A DNA stretch of 63,834 bases, filler included, from Collodictyon triciliatum (taxonomy: Eukaryota), in NCBI GenBank assembly GCA_043381765.1. It is 18 parts of 18 records of this genome, joined end to end, with 100 filler letters (N's around TTAATTAATTAA, not from the genome) between each part and the next. Parts side by side here need not be neighbours in the genome. Positions count along the whole stretch, not along the records: positions 46,900 to 50,400 come from JBHJMP010007239.1; 17 more parts are not named here. One strand, 5' to 3'. The notes under the pieces are model-generated. The model searched no databases and was not told where the DNA came from. It was given only the letters and a program-made list of their open reading frames with translations. The position numbers were made by a program, and so were the translations under genes. Within the stretch, counting starts at the first letter, position 1. Every line of letters starts with the position of its first letter. Below are positions 27,214 through 61,331 of the stretch, in pieces.

Positions 27214-28158
27214 ATGACTTCCCGGAAATCCCTTCCTCCAAGGTAACGGCAATGGTTTTTTTTTGATTTTTTCTTATTCCTTTTCTTTTTCTTTTTCTCT
27301 TTCTCTTTCGATTCTTCTCATTTTTCTACACATCATTCCCTAGCCACTGCCACGCGAATGCACAGGGCAGCCTTTTCGTCTCAACTGACCAAACTAACAA
27401 ACCCACCTGCACGAAACAGACAGCCAAAACCATCGCACCGCTGAAGGCCGAGCATGAAGCCGCAAAAGTCGACAAGACCAGCCGGATGACAAACGCCGTG
27501 CGGGAGCTGCTTGAGTGTCTCGGAGAGGATCCGACCCGCGAAGGATTGGAGAAAACACCGCTGCGCGTGAGCAAAGCACTCAGCTTCTTCACCCAAGGAT
27601 ACCAGCAGGATCTCGAGGAGATTGTGAACGAGGCCCTCTTCTCCGAAGGCCACGACGAAATGGTCATCGTGCGCGACATCGACCTCTTCAGCATGTGCGA
27701 GCACCACATGGTCCCGTTCTACGGCAAAGTCCACATCGGATACATCCCGAACGGCAAGGTCCTTGGACTGAGCAAGCTCGCCAGAATCTCGGACATGTTT
27801 GCGCGCCGCCTGCAGGTTCAGGAACGGCTGACTCGCGAGATTGCGGAGGCCGTCTCGAAGATTCTGGAGCCCCGTGGCGTTGCTGTTGTCATCGAAGCCA
27901 CGTACGTAATTCTTCCCCGAATGTATTTCCTCGTGGATAAAGTGGATACATGCTTCCGTCCAACAGCGCCGTAAAACTCTGTCTTGGCCAAGCCACTCAT
28001 CTTTCCCGCTTTGCTCCTTCCCACCAAACAGCCACTTTTGCATGGTCATGCGTGGCGTGCAAAAGACCTCTGCAAACACAGTCACAAGTTGTATGTTGGG
28101 GGTCTTCAGAGAAGATATCCGCACCCGCGAAGAGTTTCTTCGTCTCATGAGAAAGTAG
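27214..28158 (+). CDS. GCH1: GTP cyclohydrolase I (FolE), 3 exons
   Basis: [56 protein letters not shown]; intron ~27902-28031; [20 protein letters not shown] 28156-28158; start exon inferred. Confidence 0.96.
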
Positions 28159-46899: not shown

Positions 46900-46980
<81 letters not shown>

Positions 46981-47439
46981 GGAACAAAAAAGATTGAGCT
47001 CTAGCCATCGACCCACGGGCAGCAAGATTAGTATGAATATAATGCTCAGTGTTAGTTGCTCTGATTCATTCATCTGTTTTTTATCTTTTTTTCTTTTTTT
47101 CTTTTTTCTTATTCTTCGGTCTCATTCAGCCTGTAAATGGATTAACTTCATTACAAAGGTTATGACAAACTTGGTTTTATCCATTTCAAGGCACAACGAT
47201 TTTTTACAATGAAAGTGTACCCATATATAGCAGTTTATTGCACAGACAACCATCGAATTAAATCTACATCGACAAAAGCAGGAGCTTTGATGAATCCAAG
47301 AAGCAAACTGAATAATATAATAGTATAATTAGTTTATATGATAAGGTTTAAAATACTTTATAATCTCATTTTATTCCTATAAACAATTTATATTTTATTT
47401 TATATTAAGTAATTTTATCATTATAATTCAAAAATTACA

Positions 47440-49926
47440 AAGAAGCCCTTGCCTTAGCCCAGACAGAACCCATCCTATAAACCTGCCACCAAACATGCAT
47501 TTCAAAAAAGCATACTATCCACACTTGCGGCAGTAATCATGTTATTTGGGGCCGATATGTTGACTTTCAGTCGCAATCGCTATACGGCTGTCCTTTCGAA
47601 CTCGCCGAATGGGCTCTCAGCGTTTTGTCTCAAATCATTTATAAAAAACTTTGTGAGTCTGATTGCCACAATGCGCTTTTTTTGAGAGTCTCGGTAGATG
47701 CTTAATTTTACCTAAATTGATTTTATGTAGATTATTATTTATTTATCAAATTGACTAATTAACTAAAGATTTGTTAAAATTGGAAACTCGGTAGTTTTCT
47801 AAAGGAAAAAGTAAAACAAAGACTTTCAGATGAAGTAAAGAAAACGACTTGAGTCCGAGAATCTCAAGTCTGTAAAACCATACTATCGAAATGTCAAAGC
47901 ATCTCTAAAGTCGGTTGCAAAGAATGCGGATGATTATTACAAAATCAACGATACGTTTTTATTGTGTCATAATTTGGTTACTGACACTTATATGTTTGCA
48001 AGATGTTACATATTGAAATCATAACAACTCCCAACAATAGATGAAATGTTTTTTGTATGCTTTAAAGGCAGTCGGAGTAGTTTCACAAGGTAGACCCGCA
48101 AGATTAAAAATTACCAGATATAAGAGATGGCATGATGACATTTTATGTCAATGTTTTTCGATTCCTTTTGTCCCGAGAAGGACGCTTTCTGTTGGTTAGA
48201 CTGTCTCATGTATCACCGTACTTGGCGAAGCAAATGTTTACAGCTTATCGTAATAACATCAAGGAGTATTTTGTAAAGAGGTTACTGCGCTTTATAAATC
48301 AAACAGTTCCTAAAGATGAGAATACTACGGAAGCTGTTAAAAAAGGCAGAGTTACGAAAGTTAAAAAAAGCCACCTTCGAGAATCTCGAAATACCGAAAC
48401 AATATGAAGAATGGGCTGCAATACATTTGCATCATATCATTCCCAGCGATATTGTAAACGGTATCGAATATGACATCAAAGTTAATCCAAATAAGTACAT
48501 TCCATGTCTGATTTACATGAATCGCATTTTTGAGGACATTGGAACCAAAAACTGTTTCAACCAATCCCTATAAGAACTATCAATATACCATGTCATATTA
48601 CTTTAAATAACGCATGTTTGATAGATCTATTAGTATAAACTGGAAAAACAGGATTTATGAATATTATATCAGGATACAAAGAGACCCTATTGGATGAGTT
48701 CTTTGAAATGAAGAAGAGGGTCTTTCATCAGACTACAATTTTAAAAACGTGATACAAACAGACAACTTGGCGGCATCATTTTTGTTTGAAAAGAAAGGTA
48801 TTTCAAATTCAAAATCCAAATATAATAAAAAAACTCAAGAATATGTTTATATAGATGAACTTTCCGAAGGGCAGTTATCTTTATCAGCGACAAAAAATAT
48901 GTAGTTGGAGTGGACGCAGGCAAGTTTAATTTGGTTTACATGGTGGATGAGACAGGTAAGAAATCACGTTACACGACTACCAAAGAAGACATGATAGCAA
49001 ATCTCTTTAAAATCACAAAATACTCTTGCGCGAGAAAAAAGAAAAGTACAATTATTCAGGGATGTGCATGGCAACAGATTTACAAAGTGCTGTTTCTTTT
49101 GGTCATATGGCTTTTGAAGAGAATCAGCGGTTTGAGACATCAAGAGTATCATTAATCGATTTAGAGACAGGACTGAGTAAACAAAATTCATGCGCGGTCG
49201 ATTATGAAAAATTTCGAGAATATGTATCTATGAAACCAAGATACCACATAGGATTTTCCAGATTTTATGAACACGTAACTTTTCGAAAGATGATATGGAG
49301 ACAGTCTGTTAATACAAAAAAAGAAGTGAAGAATTGTTTATGGACCGAATCGAAAAGGCATTTGGCAAGGATGTTGTACTGGTGTATGGAGACTGGAGCA
49401 GAAAATGTCAGATGAAACATTTTATGCCAACAATCGGAAGAGGATTACGAAAAATACTATCCAAACGTTTTGAAACAGTTAGCGTAGATGAATTTAGAAC
49501 CTCAAGATGTGATGCAACTGCAAAAAAGAACTGGGTTATATGTGAAACCGAAAGGAAATTCAAAAAAATATGTATAGATGTCTCACATGTCAGGAATGCA
49601 ATCGCTCAGAAAGCGAACAAAGTGTATTCTTGACAAGGGACTTTATCAGCGCTAAATATATACTCCAAGTTCTTTTTATCCTACAAAATATGCCTACACC
49701 TTTCTCTAAAAAATCAGGCTTTTGGGTCTTTCCTGGCAGCCTTCACCACTACACGATCTTTGTGAAAAAAGTGGCGAGACCTTGGATACTAGCAGACCAG
49801 GTTTATCAATCGAAAGATTTAGTATACCCCTTCTAGTAGAAAAATAAATTTGCAGAATAAGTGCAAACTTTAGAGAGCGCATAATTTTTAAGGTCCGACA
49901 TATGCATGTTAAGGACTGGCGGTGCA
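47440..49926 (+). mobile_element. Non-autonomous Fanzor-carrying DNA element (left boundary approximate)
   Basis: GC-richer non-coding segment + Fanzor pseudogene + structured right end, set in AT-rich flanks; no transposase seen. Confidence 0.55.
47802..49690 (+). pseudogene. Fanzor1-type (eukaryotic TnpB) RNA-guided endonuclease, intronless, disrupted by many frameshifts/stops
   Basis: Stitched frames: YRNVKASLKSV..INDT..LVTDTYMFAR..LPTIDE; QMFTAYRNNIKEYF..LLRFIN; LFQPIPIRT..P.HI; IQTDNLAASFLF; VVGVDAGKFNLVY (RuvC-I D 48913); FRKMIWR; VVLVYGDWS..GLRKILSKRF..VDEFRTSRC (E 49490); LTCQEC (Zn finger); TRD (RuvC-III D 49639). Confidence 0.9.
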
Positions 49927-49945
49927 TAAGTATATTAATTTTTTA
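49700..49945 (+). ncRNA. Putative Fanzor omega RNA scaffold plus flank-derived guide
   Basis: Directly 3' of RuvC-III; several visible stems (49743-49777, 49786-49825 with AATC-GAAA-GATT, 49849-49867, 49893-49916), then abrupt switch to AT-rich DNA at ~49926. Confidence 0.6.
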
Positions 49946-50223
49946 ATTTTTGGTTTTTTTGTTGGCAGATTCTTTCTTGGGAAAGAGTGGCCCAGTTTGT
50001 TGGCCCAGTTCAGACCCCTCTACGAGCTGTTGGCTAATTTTCTGAAGAGAAATATGGCGATGTTAGAAAATAGGTTTCTTATTAAAAGAGTATACATTTA
50101 GAGTACAAGACGGTCTTTCTACCAAAATCAATCATCAAATACATGTGCATGCAAAGTTACTATACGCACGAAATAGTTGCATAAAACTTTTTTTTTTTGA
50201 ATATCATTAAAGAGAGTGTGTCG

Positions 50224-50225
50224 TG

Positions 50226-50298
<73 letters not shown>

Positions 50299-50303
50299 AA
50301 TTG

Positions 50304-50400
<97 letters not shown>
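50224..50400. repeat. (GTGAAA)n microsatellite at contig end
   Basis: Directly visible. Confidence 0.95.
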
Positions 50401-50722: not shown

Positions 50723-52941
50723 ATGAACAAGCACCAAACCTCCACATCTTCGTCCTCCTCCCGCTACCCCGCAGGCAATCATCATATCACACACCCCGAC
50801 CAAGGGAGCTCTCATGATTGCGCAAGGATGAGGTATGGCCTTCTGCCCTTAATTCTAAATTCCAGGAAAGAATATACAAGATTGGCCTGCGGATAGTAAC
50901 AATGGCTGCGTGGTCTTTTTTTGAGCAAGTGGGTCGGCAATACCACGTCAGCCATTATCAGGCAGCGTCATCGTTTGCACCGCTTTCGACTGGTGACGAC
51001 AAAGATGACACATATCTGACGATTTGATTGCAGCATAGAGACGGCGCTGTGACTCATTCTGATGATGGAGAATCGAACGCCTCTAGTAAATATTTATTTA
51101 TTGGATTTTATTGGATAAATGTGGACCATGCAATTCAAAACAAGATAGAGGTGACTGTATCGTCGAAAGAGTTTATTATAACTTCATTTTTTGGCTTTGT
51201 TGCAGAGAGCATATGGAATAAGCTAAGCTAGTGATTCTATTAAATATAAAATAAGGAACCAGCAATTTGTACAAATCTTATGATTCCAAAGCAGAATGTG
51301 TTTAGTTGCGTTACACACCGCTTTTGTCTTCTTGTATTGACCTTTTTTGACGACATGACACGATTGTGATTGATATAACACGTCTCGCCATTTCCACAGC
51401 TTATTTGAAATGATATTATTATTATTCTATTCAAATCTAATGATTGTGCAAAGGTAAATTATCTTATATTTGCAGTTTTTTTGACTATACTTTATCTTTT
51501 GGTTTGGTTGCCGACCACCTAGACCGTGTCTTGTCGTATTGCATTTTGGTATCAATCCACTACTTGAAAGGCACTCACTCTTCCCTGTTTTTTTTTTCCA
51601 ACAAGCCTTGTGCAATAAGTGAGCGTTGTTGCAGCGGCTGATTGTTCGCGGTGCATCATGATATAATTAAAAAAAAACTGCTGGTCATCAGTTTTTATTT
51701 TGTCGTCAAAGCTATCCTGTATCCTGTGATTTGAGATTTTATAAAAACTCAGCTTTTTTCTACATCATTTCGAGTGTATTATTTTCTTAAACTATTCAAT
51801 ACTATACTTCATGTGTTACTATCTTCGAAAGTCATATGTGTTGATGTATCTGCCAGTATGTATGAATTCAACTAGATTAAACTATCGGTCAGCTGGGAAT
51901 AAAATTGTAAAGACTATGAATTATTTGCTTACGTGATTTTTATGAAAATAAATACTCTAATTATGAATATTATTGAGAAAAGGAATATCAGGAAAAAAAG
52001 CATCACCTAGATGGAAAGTGAAGCCCAGTTGATGGATTCGCACATTATGGGAAATCAAAAAAGGTCAGCCCACTCATATTAATGAGCAAAGTTCGATAAC
52101 GTCATCTGATGATGCATCAGCTGCACTCTCCGAAAACAAAAATACGAATATTGAAATTATTGCCTACAGTGGGTTTCCTTCAAGCGACGATGACTCCGAT
52201 TCAAGAGACGGGTTGTCTGATCAAGAAAAGAAAATGAAGCGGTATTTACATATAGTTCATGGGTGAAAATGTTTATATATTTCAAAAGAAATATATGCCA
52301 TCTCTTGAATCAGCCATTATCGTGCAATGTTAAATGTTCAACGGCTAAAACTGACATCGGTTGTTACAGACTCCTTAAAAATCGGGAGTCCGCCCATCAG
52401 TCGCGTATTCGTAAGAAGACTTATATTTCTGAGTTGGAAAAGAGAACATCGGCATTAGCCTCTGCAAACTCCGACTTGCAAACCAAAGTCAGCACCCTCA
52501 ATACAGAGAACAAACTATTGAAAGACCAGCTCTCGTATCTCAGAGTGGTTCTATCCCAAGCAGCAACGAACACATATCATCCCCATGTCACAAGTGCACA
52601 TACAAACGCATTCCCTACTAACTTGGCGCAAAGCATTTTTCCTGGTTCCAACAACACAGCTGTTATCAATGCTGCATCTTCACATTCCCAAGGATCTTTA
52701 ATGAATGTAAGTCTGATGTTCTTTCGCAACTAGTAAAAACACATTCGAAAATAACAGCCCTGGTGTTGTTTGTCTCCCTTAAGTTGGGAGGGTATGAAAG
52801 AGAAATGGACGCAATATATTTGTAGTATTTTATTCAGCCTTCCCTTAAGATTGATGCTGACTTATAAAAACCTCGTAGCTTGGTCAAAGAACACTTTCAA
52901 GTGACTTTTTTGGTTTCTCATTTCATCCAAAGGAAAAATAA
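50723..52941 (+). CDS. bZIP transcription factor
   Basis: EKKMKR|LLKNRESAHQSRIRKKTYISELEKRTSALASANSDLQTKVSTLNTENKLLKDQLSYL (basic region + leucine heptads, ~52225-52545); 5' exons and final exon inferred. Confidence 0.88.
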
Positions 52942-58114: not shown

Positions 58115-61012
58115 TAGAGAACGAGCCTCCAAAGTCCGAATCTGCTCTCTCTACAACCAATATACCTTCAGAACTCGGCCATGGCGACTCAGATTCTTCA
58201 GAAAACGATGAGAGCGAATCAACACAGGACACATCCGCCGATTTGCTATCATTGGAATTGAATGCTGCGAACACAGAAATCATATCTCCAGCATTGGAGC
58301 GTGAGGCTTACATGCACCGAAAGCAGAGTGTTAATGAGCAGTTTGGTAATCTGAGTATTTTAATGGAGCGGATAGCCAAATCCCAAAGAGACCTCACAAA
58401 AATCGTTGCAGTTCATGAAGAACCTGCTGTAGAAACATACTCTACTCAAAAAAGCTCTTACATACAACTAGAACAAAAATCTGAAGACAATCTGTTGAGT
58501 TTAGAATCACCTCTTTCTCATCTTGATGGGCCAGATGTAAGCCTATTGATATCCCAATCTGATACATCGCCAAAGAAAGTGAATAAAACTCAGGAAATGG
58601 ATGAGGCAGAAGAGACAGCAACGGCAGCGGTTGAGTCTTTGGGACAGGAAGCACCAAGTGGAATGAAAAATGAAGAACATGTCCTCCCAAAGAGCTTCAG
58701 TCTTGAGCAATCGATACTAGGTCATGAGGATTCCGTAGAGGCCAAAGGAGCCACCGAACCTGAGAGTGAATCAAAAAATACGATGCAGCCAAATGAGGAG
58801 GAAAGCAAAGATACCGGCGCAGTACCAATTGAATACTCAATCGATCTTTTACAAGACTCATCAGAAAATCTGGAGGTATAATAAAATTCCTCTTTTTCTT
58901 TATGAATGCAAGCATTGTCACATGAAAAATACGTATTGTCATTGGCTACTTCTTTCATAGGAAAAATAACTGATTAGTTTTGCTCAATCGATTTAGGAAT
59001 TGCTAAAAAGGGATATATATCGCGAAAAAATTGTCGATGAAATCATTTCCACAGAGTCCGACTACGTTCGAGACCTGCATATCATCGTGGAGGTATGACA
59101 AAAAAAAAAAGACAAGTTATTGTAATCATAGTATGGGTTTGTTATCTTTTCTTTTCTTTTCTTTTTTCATTCTATGAGCTCACGTATCGACAATTACCAG
59201 GAATTCCTAGAGCCGATTCTTGCAGAAAGTATTCTCTCCTCGACACAAATCAACGAAATTTTCGGAGATGTTCGGCCCCTTTACGACTTGCATTCAATCA
59301 TCTTTGAGTAAGCATGTGATTTTGACAGATACATGTGATTATGTCTGGTATCTATGTAATGTTGTCATTGAATTCCTACCAGCTTCATAAAGCAATTGAT
59401 TTTATTTTACAGAGAGTTTGTGAAGGACAAATACACAATTGGATACGTTATCGTGAAATATGTCGCAGCATTTAAAGTACTGCTTACAGATTATTAGCGC
59501 AGTTTTTTTTCCTCCATATATATCGTTGAATGCATATATATTCACTTTTTTGTATGCTTTCATATATAGATATACAGTACGTATTGTGCTGCATATGACA
59601 CGACTCTTGAAAATATAACGAAACTTAGGCAAACAAACTCACCCTTCAGGAAGTTCCTTCAGGTTTGAACACATGTTTTTGTTAGAAAAAAATCAATTGT
59701 TGATATTATGATTTGAGTTGCGTCATTTTCTCTGGTGTTTCTGTTTGGTGCATCCAGAAAGTTGCTACCTCCATCTCGAATGTAAAGAACGCTACTCATA
59801 GCCCAACAATTAAAATCTAGGCAGCGCTCCAAAGAGAAGCGTGTCGTGGATTGGATTTGAGCAGCTTTCTCATCAAACCTGTGCAACGAATATGCAAATA
59901 CCCGTTGCTTTTGAGAGTAAAGCAATATATTTTCGAAATCTCATATTGATTTTCCACATCCCTCATTCAATGTTGACATGAAACAGATGTGGAGACATAT
60001 TCAAGTTGACCACTTTTCACCAAATTTTGCTTCTGCTTTTGGCGATGTAATACTCCGTAAGAAAGAAAAAAATGAATTACTCTCAACGTAGGAATTACTT
60101 AAGTACACTCCGTCGGATAGTCCTGATTATTCTCAGATAGAAGAGGCTTTGCAGTTGGTCAATAAATGCGCAGCAGGTAGTCTTCATATCAACCATTATT
60201 TTTGTTTTTGTTTTACTATTTTAAAGAAAGAAAAAATAAAGCAGAGAATAGTGCAATAACACACATTCATTCATCAGCTTAGTAATTCAATTTTTAAATC
60301 GGGATTCGATGAATTATTTTTCTCTCATTTTTAGGAGTCAATCAAAGGGTCAAAGAGTTGAAAAACAACGAACGACTGTTGAGTATATCGAACCGAATAG
60401 AGGGCGGCAAAGTATGACACTCACTTCTTTTTTCTTCTTTATTCAATTCAAAGATGGTATTCACTTTTTAGTGAGATATGTCAAATTCTAGTCCTTTCGT
60501 CTCACATGAAGGAAATAATGAAATGCATATGAAATTTCAGACTATAGCCACATAATCGTTTATGATAGTATTATACGAGCGAGAAAAAAAAATATAGCCA
60601 ACTGCTTACTTGCTTTAGGCGAACCTTTTGACTCCTTCTCGAAAATTCATCACCGAGGCAACTGTTCGAAAGTACTCCCCTAAGTTTGGTTTCCAGCAAA
60701 GGGTAAATAAACGTTTTTGCTGGTGGACATGTTGATTTTTTTTAAGCTCAACTGGTCTGACTTGAAGGTTGCCCTTGTTAACCCTGTCTATTGGATTGCA
60801 ATAGCGCATCATACTGTTCAACGACCTCATTCTGCTTGTAAAGGATATGAAAAGTCACCACTATAAGGTGATTCTTCCATTTGAATTTATTCTTTTGTTG
60901 TGATGAAGTGTATATTCATGCCATAGGCACAAATTGTAGTGGAAAGAAGCTTTGACTATTCAGCAAAACTACGGGGTCAGAGAATACGATGACCCTTTCA
61001 ACGTGTTAGATG
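58115..61012 (+). CDS. Dbl-family RhoGEF (acidic disordered region + DH + PH), partial
   Basis: [74 protein letters not shown]. Confidence 0.93.
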
Positions 61013-61331
61013 GTAAAAAAAAAAAAAAAGAAGCTTAATATTGCAGATTGAAGACTTTATTCTTTCTTTTTTAATTTTATATTAGGCCTATTTGATTATC
61101 ATTCGAGCTTTTTTTTTTGTTTTAAAAAGTAAGCATACTCTTTAAAATACCTACTGGATGATGGAGCAGTTTTTAAATTGAGTGAAAGAAATCATTCGCT
61201 NNNNNNNNNNNNNNNNNNNNNNNNNNNNNNNNNNNNNNNNNNNNTTAATTAATTAANNNNNNNNNNNNNNNNNNNNNNNNNNNNNNNNNNNNNNNNNNNN
61301 AAAAAAAAAAAAAAAAAAAATAAAAAAAAAA

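Follow-up and report, generated by a model that had tools for sequence, protein, structure and literature searches.

The window analysed here is a 63,834-nucleotide (nt) stretch of the Collodictyon triciliatum assembly GCA_043381765.1, and one of its contigs carries a Fanzor1-type RNA-guided DNA endonuclease pseudogene within a decayed copy of a multi-copy mobile element, a reading to which we assign a probability of about 0.9. The coding frame is interrupted at 16 places, by 12 frameshifts and four in-frame stop codons, and the copy can no longer make protein; at most it can make RNA. An earlier note on this DNA, made from the sequence alone, had described a dead, intronless Fanzor1-type gene at 47802..49690 broken by roughly ten or more frameshifts or stops. 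Structure-database (PDB), alignment, profile and fold evidence now agree on that identification, the number of breaks is borne out, and the motif series that the note listed is present in full and in the order claimed. Its coordinates captured the gene, but the frame ends ∼75 nt further on, at 49765, and the start lies at an ATG at 47830, with an in-frame TAA at 47812 upstream of it.

The extent of the gene and its lesions were defined with a frameshift-aware dynamic-programming protein-to-DNA alignment, using the intact relative P0001 (648 amino acids, aa) as query. Residues 1-642 of P0001 are colinear with window positions 47830-49753, with 376 of 636 aligned residues identical (59%), across a region that is AT-rich and without a long open frame. 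Each frameshift involves one or two bases (near 48052, 48107, 48342, 48541, 48732, 48899, 48979, 49317, 49511, 49537, 49569 and 49696), and the stops, all TAA, have their first bases at 47836, 48022, 48636 and 49008. When the gene is read through, with an X placed at each of the 16 breaks, a profile made from 84 relatives gives it 533.6 bits (E 3e-158 at Z = 1e6) and gives no hit to any of 200 shuffles; the homology is thus well beyond chance. Across the breaks, the pseudogene retains the catalytic Asp of RuvC-I, the Gly of YGDWS, the alternative catalytic Glu, the four Cys of the zinc finger and the RD of RuvC-III. From the Gly of YGDWS to the alternative Glu the distance is 34 residues, and the first Cys comes seven positions later.

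Family assignment

Sequence comparison with the PDB places both the relic and its intact relative among the Fanzor1 proteins. The piece of the relic at 49313-49633 matches Fanzor1 of Parasitella parasitica, PpFz1 (9cf0, E 3.9e-7), and, far more weakly, SpuFz1 (E 0.42); in a large protein collection the same piece finds three proteins, the intact P0001 among them. P0001 itself matches GtFz1, PpFz1 and SpuFz1 (E 2.1e-28, 2.7e-24 and 3.7e-23, respectively). The other two PDB entries returned for it are myoglobins (E 0.4-0.6), and no TnpB or Cas12 sequence in the PDB matches it at E <= 1.

Structural modeling extends this assignment over the whole protein. The AlphaFold2 model of P0001, based on 84 relatives, is confident, with 89.6 as its predicted local distance difference test score (pLDDT) and a predicted template modeling score (pTM) of 0.88. 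When the model is searched against the PDB with Foldseek, Fanzor1 chains take the first seven places (template modeling (TM) scores of 0.63-0.77 on the query, TMq, and up to 0.82 on the target, TMt). The next match, Cas12o1 (E 6e-7, TM 0.24), has an E-value higher by more than 17 orders of magnitude, and a Fanzor2 (9b0l) appears at rank 17 (TM 0.20). P0001 thus resembles the solved Fanzor1 proteins along its whole length, in preference to TnpB, Fanzor2 and Cas12. The secondary structure of the model includes two long helices (residues 460-481 and 484-512) between RuvC-I and RuvC-II; the REC2 of Fanzor1 is described in PMC10711439 as two long helices, kinked and paired, within RuvC.

The residues expected of a TnpB/Fanzor nuclease are strongly conserved. 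T312, D364, P365, G521, E555 and S559 (P0001 numbering) are invariant across the 84 relatives, D313, G314, R603 and D604 are conserved in at least 90% of them, and C562, C565, C587 and C590 are invariant in a ten-sequence alignment (A1). The TnpB/Fanzor motif given by Bao and Jurka 2013 (PMC3627910), D-X(125,275)-[TS][TS]-X-X-C4-X(5,50)-RD, is found in P0001 as D364, T558 S559 K L C562, C565, C587, C590 and R603 D604, with spacings of 193 and 12 residues. The same regular expression matches the X-masked read-through of the relic (GVDAG ... RTSR-C/CNC ... CLTC ... TRD), and there it does so only across three frameshifts and a one-residue deletion. PF07282 (Cas12f1-like TNB) matches the relatives P0002 and P0003, below its curated cut-off.

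Several features set Fanzors apart in the published descriptions. RuvC-I reads DPG rather than D-hydrophobic-G, the zinc finger is preceded at six residues by an alternative Glu, and Fanzor1 is marked by TDG in its WED domain (all as described in PMC10711439); the canonical RuvC-II Glu is replaced by Pro or Gly (as described in PMC10530073). The relic has both the replacement and the alternative Glu, in the Gly of YGDWS and the Glu of VDEFRTS. That Gly probably occupies the canonical RuvC-II Glu position, as judged from the papers' descriptions and not from superposition. The Lys/Arg-rich stretch at the N-terminus may be a nuclear localization signal (NLS), by analogy with the account in PMC10530073. 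The arrangement typical of Fanzor2/IS607, a compact TnpB-like protein with a TnpA serine recombinase beside it, is not seen: neither the contig nor the sequence upstream of relatives yielded a recombinase or any other Pfam transposase.

Comparison with characterized systems sharpens the picture. The solved Fanzor1 proteins come from Spizellomyces punctatus (SpuFz1; 8gkh, 9ceu-9cez), Guillardia theta (GtFz1; 9cer) and P. parasitica (PpFz1), and P0001 shares with them its whole-length fold, the DPG and RD motifs, the C4 zinc finger and the alternative Glu. In sequence it is only 18-21% identical to them, and the window copy is broken at 16 places and carries DAG and TDN for DPG and TDG. TnpB (ISDra2, 8h1j) and Fanzor2 (mimivirus, 9b0l) have the RuvC and zinc-finger core in common with P0001, as well as the motif described in PMC3627910, but match its fold weakly (TM 0.20-0.33, E 5e-5 to 6e-4) and its sequence not at all at E <= 1; P0001 is ∼200 residues longer than either and has Fanzor1-type insertions.

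Repeat copies and ends of the element

The pseudogene belongs to a sequence that is repeated many times and in diverged form. Contigs of four public runs were placed on the window at 80% likeness, among them a freshwater metagenome run (X1) and two small organism-labelled runs (X2 and X4). Between 47100 and 49880, 478 contig pieces of X2 and 486 of X4 align at 80-100% identity; the X2 pieces divide into 50 at 99% or more, 105 at 95-99%, 180 at 90-95% and 143 below 90%. The depth of these sibling contigs is ∼140-220 through the 5′ region and the gene, falls to ∼15-20 in 49778-49880 and is ∼1-2 beyond, so the repeat unit stops ∼70-110 nt past the gene. Upstream, the 5′ leader is repeated together with the gene.

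Some sibling contigs skip parts of the window sequence in a way that hints at splicing without proving it. Four of the 15 listed joints carry GT..AG ends, and three skipped stretches with such ends are given in Table 1. The one just upstream of the ATG has a counterpart in an X4 contig, where a skip of the same 173 nt is shifted by one base and its listed ends are CG..TA. If X2 and X4 are RNA, the family may be transcribed and may have an intron in its 5′ leader.

A structured 3′ element in the relatives

The DNA around related genes points to a conserved RNA at their 3′ end. Across 117 related loci, nucleotide conservation extends from ∼450-500 nt before the ATG to ∼90 nt past the stop and then collapses. 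Within this span, the giant-virus and metagenome relatives (L002-L160; alignments A3 and A5) carry a structured 3′ element that reaches from ∼50-100 nt before the stop to ∼50-90 nt past it and closes with a near-invariant GGTGTAAA at a sharp boundary. A structure of 26 base pairs is supported by 91.6% of cells being paired, compared with 43-51% when the structure is slid, and 13 of its pairs show changes on both sides; its covariation score was reached by none of 500 shuffles. All seven pairs of the first helix show compensatory changes, and the stop codon falls inside a hairpin. For the nine closest loci, RNAalifold gives 32 pairs, 17 of them with compensatory changes.

The layout of this element matches that expected of a right-end guide RNA, since it overlaps the end of the open reading frame (ORF) and would be read out into the flank, as described for GtFz1, whose omega RNA overlaps the ORF end by 17 aa (PMC10432273). 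Three-stem RNAs are described for Fanzor1 in PMC10711439. Judged by its covariation and position, the 3′ element of the giant-virus clade is a strong omega-RNA candidate.

Covariance models were built from 97 giant-virus 3′ elements (R1) and from the nine closest giant-virus loci (R2). On the contig, the best R2 match lies at 49720-49838 (12.0 bits, E 0.038, over the full model), on the expected strand, crossing the stop codon and overlapping the last 46 nt of the frame. This place agrees with the fall in repeat depth, and the segment is therefore marked as a candidate omega-RNA remnant and right end of the element; as an identification of an omega RNA in the window it is marginal.

Giant-virus relatives and the origin of the contig

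The family to which the relic belongs is large and, in its nearest known members, viral. A HMMER search of 1.84 billion representative proteins gave 3147 clusters with E <= 0.001, of which 537 have E <= 1e-30. In the nearest ESM-Atlas clusters, 74-95% of the members have PF26935 (DUF8286) and giant-virus proteins make up 92-100%. Of the stretches matched in pattern scans, 531 of 599 from JGI metagenomes and 397 of 415 from IMG/VR encode relatives, many of them on contigs named as giant-virus metagenome-assembled genomes (GVMAG) and up to 255 kb long. The nearest relatives for which DNA is available are PF26935 ‘transposase’ proteins of giant viruses (GVMAG/IMG-VR), 37-47% identical to P0001 over the full length. 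They share a layout of a ∼450-500 nt 5′ region, a single ORF of 575-651 aa without introns and, at the 3′ side, a tail that is short and conserved. All 160 metagenome and virus loci kept for analysis consist of one unbroken ORF of that length range, four of which run off the contig end. One Fanzor-family fragment from JGI/IMG, P0008 (378 aa), bears the source name ‘6-pyruvoyl-tetrahydropterin synthase’, a likely mis-annotation.

The earlier note had expected that an intact sibling might exist and that the family might be undescribed. The first expectation is confirmed by P0001 and P0155 (both 648 aa, 59% identical), by the unbroken viral and metagenomic loci, and by sibling contigs that are free of several of the lesions. 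The second does not hold at the level of the family, given the number of clusters, the presence of PF26935 on the nearest ones and the Fanzor1 proteins of protists and giant viruses already in print (described in PMC3627910, PMC10432273 and PMC10530073). The sharing of Fanzor1 between giant viruses and their hosts (10.1101/2024.09.03.611062) and Fanzor-only elements with a guide at the right end (PMC3627910) are likewise already described in those sources.

This viral kinship raises the question of whether the contig is part of a eukaryotic nuclear genome at all. It could derive from a giant virus or another co-sequenced organism, as the 397 IMG/VR stretches and the predominantly viral Atlas clusters might suggest; the contig is, moreover, unlinked to anything else, and its guanine-cytosine (GC) content, 0.334, is low for the 18 contigs in the window (0.331-0.459). 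Either origin is nevertheless improbable. None of the 160 metagenomic and viral loci is broken, as against 16 lesions here, and the two organism-labelled runs contain diverged copies by the hundred, which fits a transposon family of cells rather than a few-copy virus. Both ends of the contig are microsatellites, (ATA)n on the left and (GTGAAA)n on the right, and microsatellites or homopolymers are also found at the ends of most other contigs. In trinucleotide make-up its mean distance from the other 17 contigs, 0.229, falls inside the 0.178-0.291 spanned by the full set of 18. Trinucleotide composition and contig ends thus make a contaminant less likely.

Phylogeny points the same way. In a quick maximum-likelihood tree of 56 rows, unrooted and with a polytomy at the relevant node, the relic and P0001 form a pair (support 100, stem 0.51), which the long-branched P0014 joins (support 96). 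The three fall inside a set of 41 rows (support 95) that holds all 25 viral rows, and they are nested in no viral subclade. The relic and P0001 thus form a long branch of their own outside the viral subclades, and the window copy, unlike the giant-virus genes, is dead.

It is equally improbable that the contig is a fragment of an integrated giant virus, akin to a giant endogenous viral element (GEVE), in which the Fanzor gene was carried along instead of standing as a transposon copy in host DNA. A precedent exists in Chlamydomonas reinhardtii, where, as described in 10.1101/2024.09.03.611062, a Fanzor1 is found in an integrated giant virus and a related fragment on a host chromosome, so that there too it is common to giant virus and host DNA; the kinship of the present family to giant-virus genes would fit such an origin. 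The Chlamydomonas families, compared here by description only, include full-length versions with a Tc1/Mariner-type transposase; for the present family no transposase turned up on this contig or in five small ORFs upstream of giant-virus relatives. Against an integrated virus, the contig carries no other viral gene, within the limits of its 3.5 kb, and the repeat unit ends ∼70-110 nt past the gene, which fits a small element and not a large viral block. High copy number and a wide spectrum of divergence also fit amplification as a transposon, and a decayed transposon copy in host DNA is accordingly the preferred origin.

Points against the assignment and the reality of the lesions

A number of results weigh against a decayed Fanzor1 element and set limits on how it is described. 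At the level of domains, none of the eight reading-frame pieces has a TnpB-related Pfam match at E <= 1, and P0001 has no Pfam match at E <= 0.1 in a Pfam copy that seemingly does not contain PF26935; the assignment therefore rests on the PDB, profile and fold comparisons. At the level of motifs, two conserved residues are altered in the pseudogene: the DPG signature, whose D364 and P365 are invariant in the 84 relatives, including the closest intact sibling, reads DAG, and the Fanzor1 TDG reads TDN. These changes class the copy as a decayed descendant of Fanzor1 and not a working member, and we read both as probable decay in a dead copy.

At the level of the element, the left boundary is ambiguous. 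Several X2 and X4 contigs depart from the window sequence at 47246 into one common other sequence, yet repetitive sequence is found at 47100-47245 too; in its left part this copy thus seems to be rearranged, truncated or joined to another repeat. Searches around the gene for terminal inverted repeats (TIRs) and for direct repeats or a target-site duplication (TSD) yielded only low-complexity or chance pairs, and no transposase was found on the contig or in five small ORFs upstream of the giant-virus relatives, so the term mobile element follows from copy number alone. The RNA label of X2 and X4, on which transcription of the family depends, is a guess.

At the level of the guide RNA, R2 searched over the whole window ranks 49720-49838 second of 11 matches (E 0.7). 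The top match, 60235-60341 on the minus strand (12.9 bits, E 0.44), lies on a different contig, away from any Fanzor gene, and is regarded as a chance hit. R1 has no recognizable match on the contig: its best hit falls in low-complexity DNA and is not significant (8.8 bits, E 0.93), and at the expected place it gives 6.3 bits (E 3.2, rank 6 of 8). The segment 49735-49932 folds no more stably than shuffled sequence (z = -0.72; 43 of 200 shuffles fold as well).

Finally, seven of the 12 frameshifts coincide with an A/T run of at least five bases or are no more than 7 nt from one, so a few of them could be sequencing errors. It is nonetheless highly improbable that the gene is intact in the organism and that the breaks as a whole arose through error in sequencing or in assembling a short contig of poor quality, even given that this is an unplaced 3.5 kb piece, that no public run contains more than 10% of the words sampled from the stretch and that no RNA run is listed as containing them: all four stops and five of the indels lie away from homopolymers, the invariant Pro365 and the at least 90% conserved Gly314 are substituted, frameshift sites are reproduced in another run, the branch of the relic is 2.5 times that of its sister, and an open GTP cyclohydrolase I exon on another contig (Pfam E 5.7e-60) indicates that base quality is not generally poor.

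The reproduction of lesions comes from the freshwater metagenome run X1, whose contigs show no difference over 48268-48416 and a single letter difference, without a gap, over 48486-48636; together these stretches span two of the 12 frameshift sites. The sibling contigs supply the converse. At 47836 all contigs covering the first TAA (10 of X2 and 12 of X4) have A for T, which restores a Lys codon as in P0001, and frame-restoring length differences occur at 48339, 48547, 49316 and 49543 among the best-supported differences listed. The lesions are real and at least partly private to this copy. The end branch of the relic in the maximum-likelihood tree (0.56, compared with 0.22 for P0001) is of the greater length expected once constraint is lost. 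A reassigned TAA codon was considered and rejected: the P0001 residues aligned with the four stops differ (K, a gap region, T and R), and reassignment would leave 12 frameshifts in place. The stops look like AT-biased decay.

Feature positions and contig context

The positions of all features are collected in Table 1.

Table 1. Features of the pseudogene, its contig and other contigs, in window coordinates.
Feature	Position	Strand	Basis or remarks
Unplaced contig with the whole finding (JBHJMP010007239.1)	46900..50400	none	3501 nt, linker-bounded; (ATA)n left end, (GTGAAA)n right end
5′ leader	47246..47829	+	Repeated with the gene in sibling copies; sibling depth; shared loose end at 47246 (X2, X4)
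GT..AG skip	47323-47445	none	Joint 47322/47446, X2 and X4
Possible GT..AG intron, 173 nt	47622-47794	+	Just upstream of the ATG; joint 47621/47795, one X2 contig
Fanzor1 pseudogene	47830..49765	+	ATG 47830 to TGA 49763-49765; 12 frameshifts, 4 in-frame TAA stops
Lys/Arg-rich, NLS-like N-terminus, MK*RKR	47830..47850	+	Alignment (MKKRKR in P0001); interrupted by the first TAA
WED-domain TDG motif, here TDN, in IQTD(N)	48758..48766	+	P0001 alignment
RuvC-I, GVDAG	48907..48921	+	P0001 alignment; catalytic Asp codon 48913-48915 kept; Pro to Ala, DPG to DAG (48913-48921)
GT..AG skip	48954-49162	none	Joint 48953/49163, X4
RuvC-II strand, YGDWS	49385..49399	+	P0001 alignment; Gly, probably where canonical TnpB has Glu
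VDEFRTS with alternative catalytic Glu	49484..49504	+	P0001 alignment; Glu codon 49490-49492; just before the zinc finger
C4 zinc-finger region (C-CNC ... CLTC)	49505..49590	+	Crossed by three frameshifts and a one-residue deletion
RuvC-III, TRD	49633..49641	+	P0001 alignment; catalytic Asp codon 49639-49641
Candidate omega-RNA remnant and element right end	49720..49838	+	Best R2 match on the contig; across the stop codon; overlaps last 46 nt of the frame
GTP cyclohydrolase I exon, long and open	27267-27974	+	Pfam E 5.7e-60; separate contig
Two-repeat Myb domain	38338-38886	+	E 3e-17; separate contig
bZIP domain	52221-52733	+	E 1.5e-12; separate contig

Eighteen unplaced contigs of near-equal size (2534-3526 nt) make up the window. 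They are joined by 17 identical 100-nt linkers (44 N, TTAATTAATTAA and 44 N) at a spacing of ∼3.6 kb (3518-3617, 7126-7225 and so on to 61201-61300). Because linkers separate the contigs, the adjoining window sequence is not the genomic neighborhood of the pseudogene, and arguments from neighboring genes across linkers are unsafe anywhere in window 1-63834. On its own contig the pseudogene is alone, with no second long ORF in the ORF list. The other 17 contigs hold no second Fanzor copy, as judged by tblastn with P0001-P0003 and blastn of the contig, and the whole window has no Rfam match at gathering thresholds. The genes for GTP cyclohydrolase I and for the Myb and bZIP proteins are ordinary eukaryotic genes, and the Myb and bZIP exons identify the assembly as eukaryotic. 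For the GTP cyclohydrolase I exon, the Atlas gave bacterial clusters only, which carry no information about the host. The earlier note's phrase ‘locus in a protist genome’ thus claims too much for a lone gene on an unplaced contig chained to others by linkers, albeit in a eukaryotic assembly.

Proposed mechanism and implications

The evidence suggests a model in which the pseudogene is part of a decayed copy of a mobile element of ∼2.6 kb that has Fanzor as its only gene and lacks a transposase. Diverged copies of the element are numerous in at least two organisms for which there are public runs. By analogy with the characterized members of the family, the intact protein (∼620-650 aa) would enter the nucleus by means of its Lys/Arg-rich N-terminus and bind an omega RNA derived from the last 50-100 nt of its own ORF and ∼50-90 nt past the stop. 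The scaffold of this RNA would stop at the right end of the element, and its continuation into flanking DNA would serve as the guide. The RuvC site, made up of the DPG Asp, the alternative Glu that precedes the zinc finger and the RD Asp, would then cut matching DNA, and these activities may have some role in the spread of the element.

A wider proposal is that the relic, together with P0001 and P0155, represents an undescribed Fanzor1 lineage that came from the giant-virus pool, is present in hundreds of copies in freshwater protists, is still transcribed with a spliced 5′ leader, and includes intact members that are active programmable nucleases with their own omega RNA and target-adjacent motif (TAM). 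As a whole this proposal is doubtful, and we offer it tentatively.

Taken by itself, the copy in the window matters little: dead Fanzor1 copies are to be expected in eukaryotic assemblies, and the family is already known from thousands of database proteins and a Pfam domain. The lead lies in the intact 648-aa sibling lineage of P0001 and P0155, which can be tested as a compact RNA-guided nuclease. The finding also adds a case in which one Fanzor1 clade is found on contigs of giant viruses and also, amplified as a repeat, in the genomes of cells, which bears on movement between virus and host. For the giant-virus clade itself, the covariation-backed 3′ element with its sharp right end provides a hypothesis for the guide-RNA scaffold.

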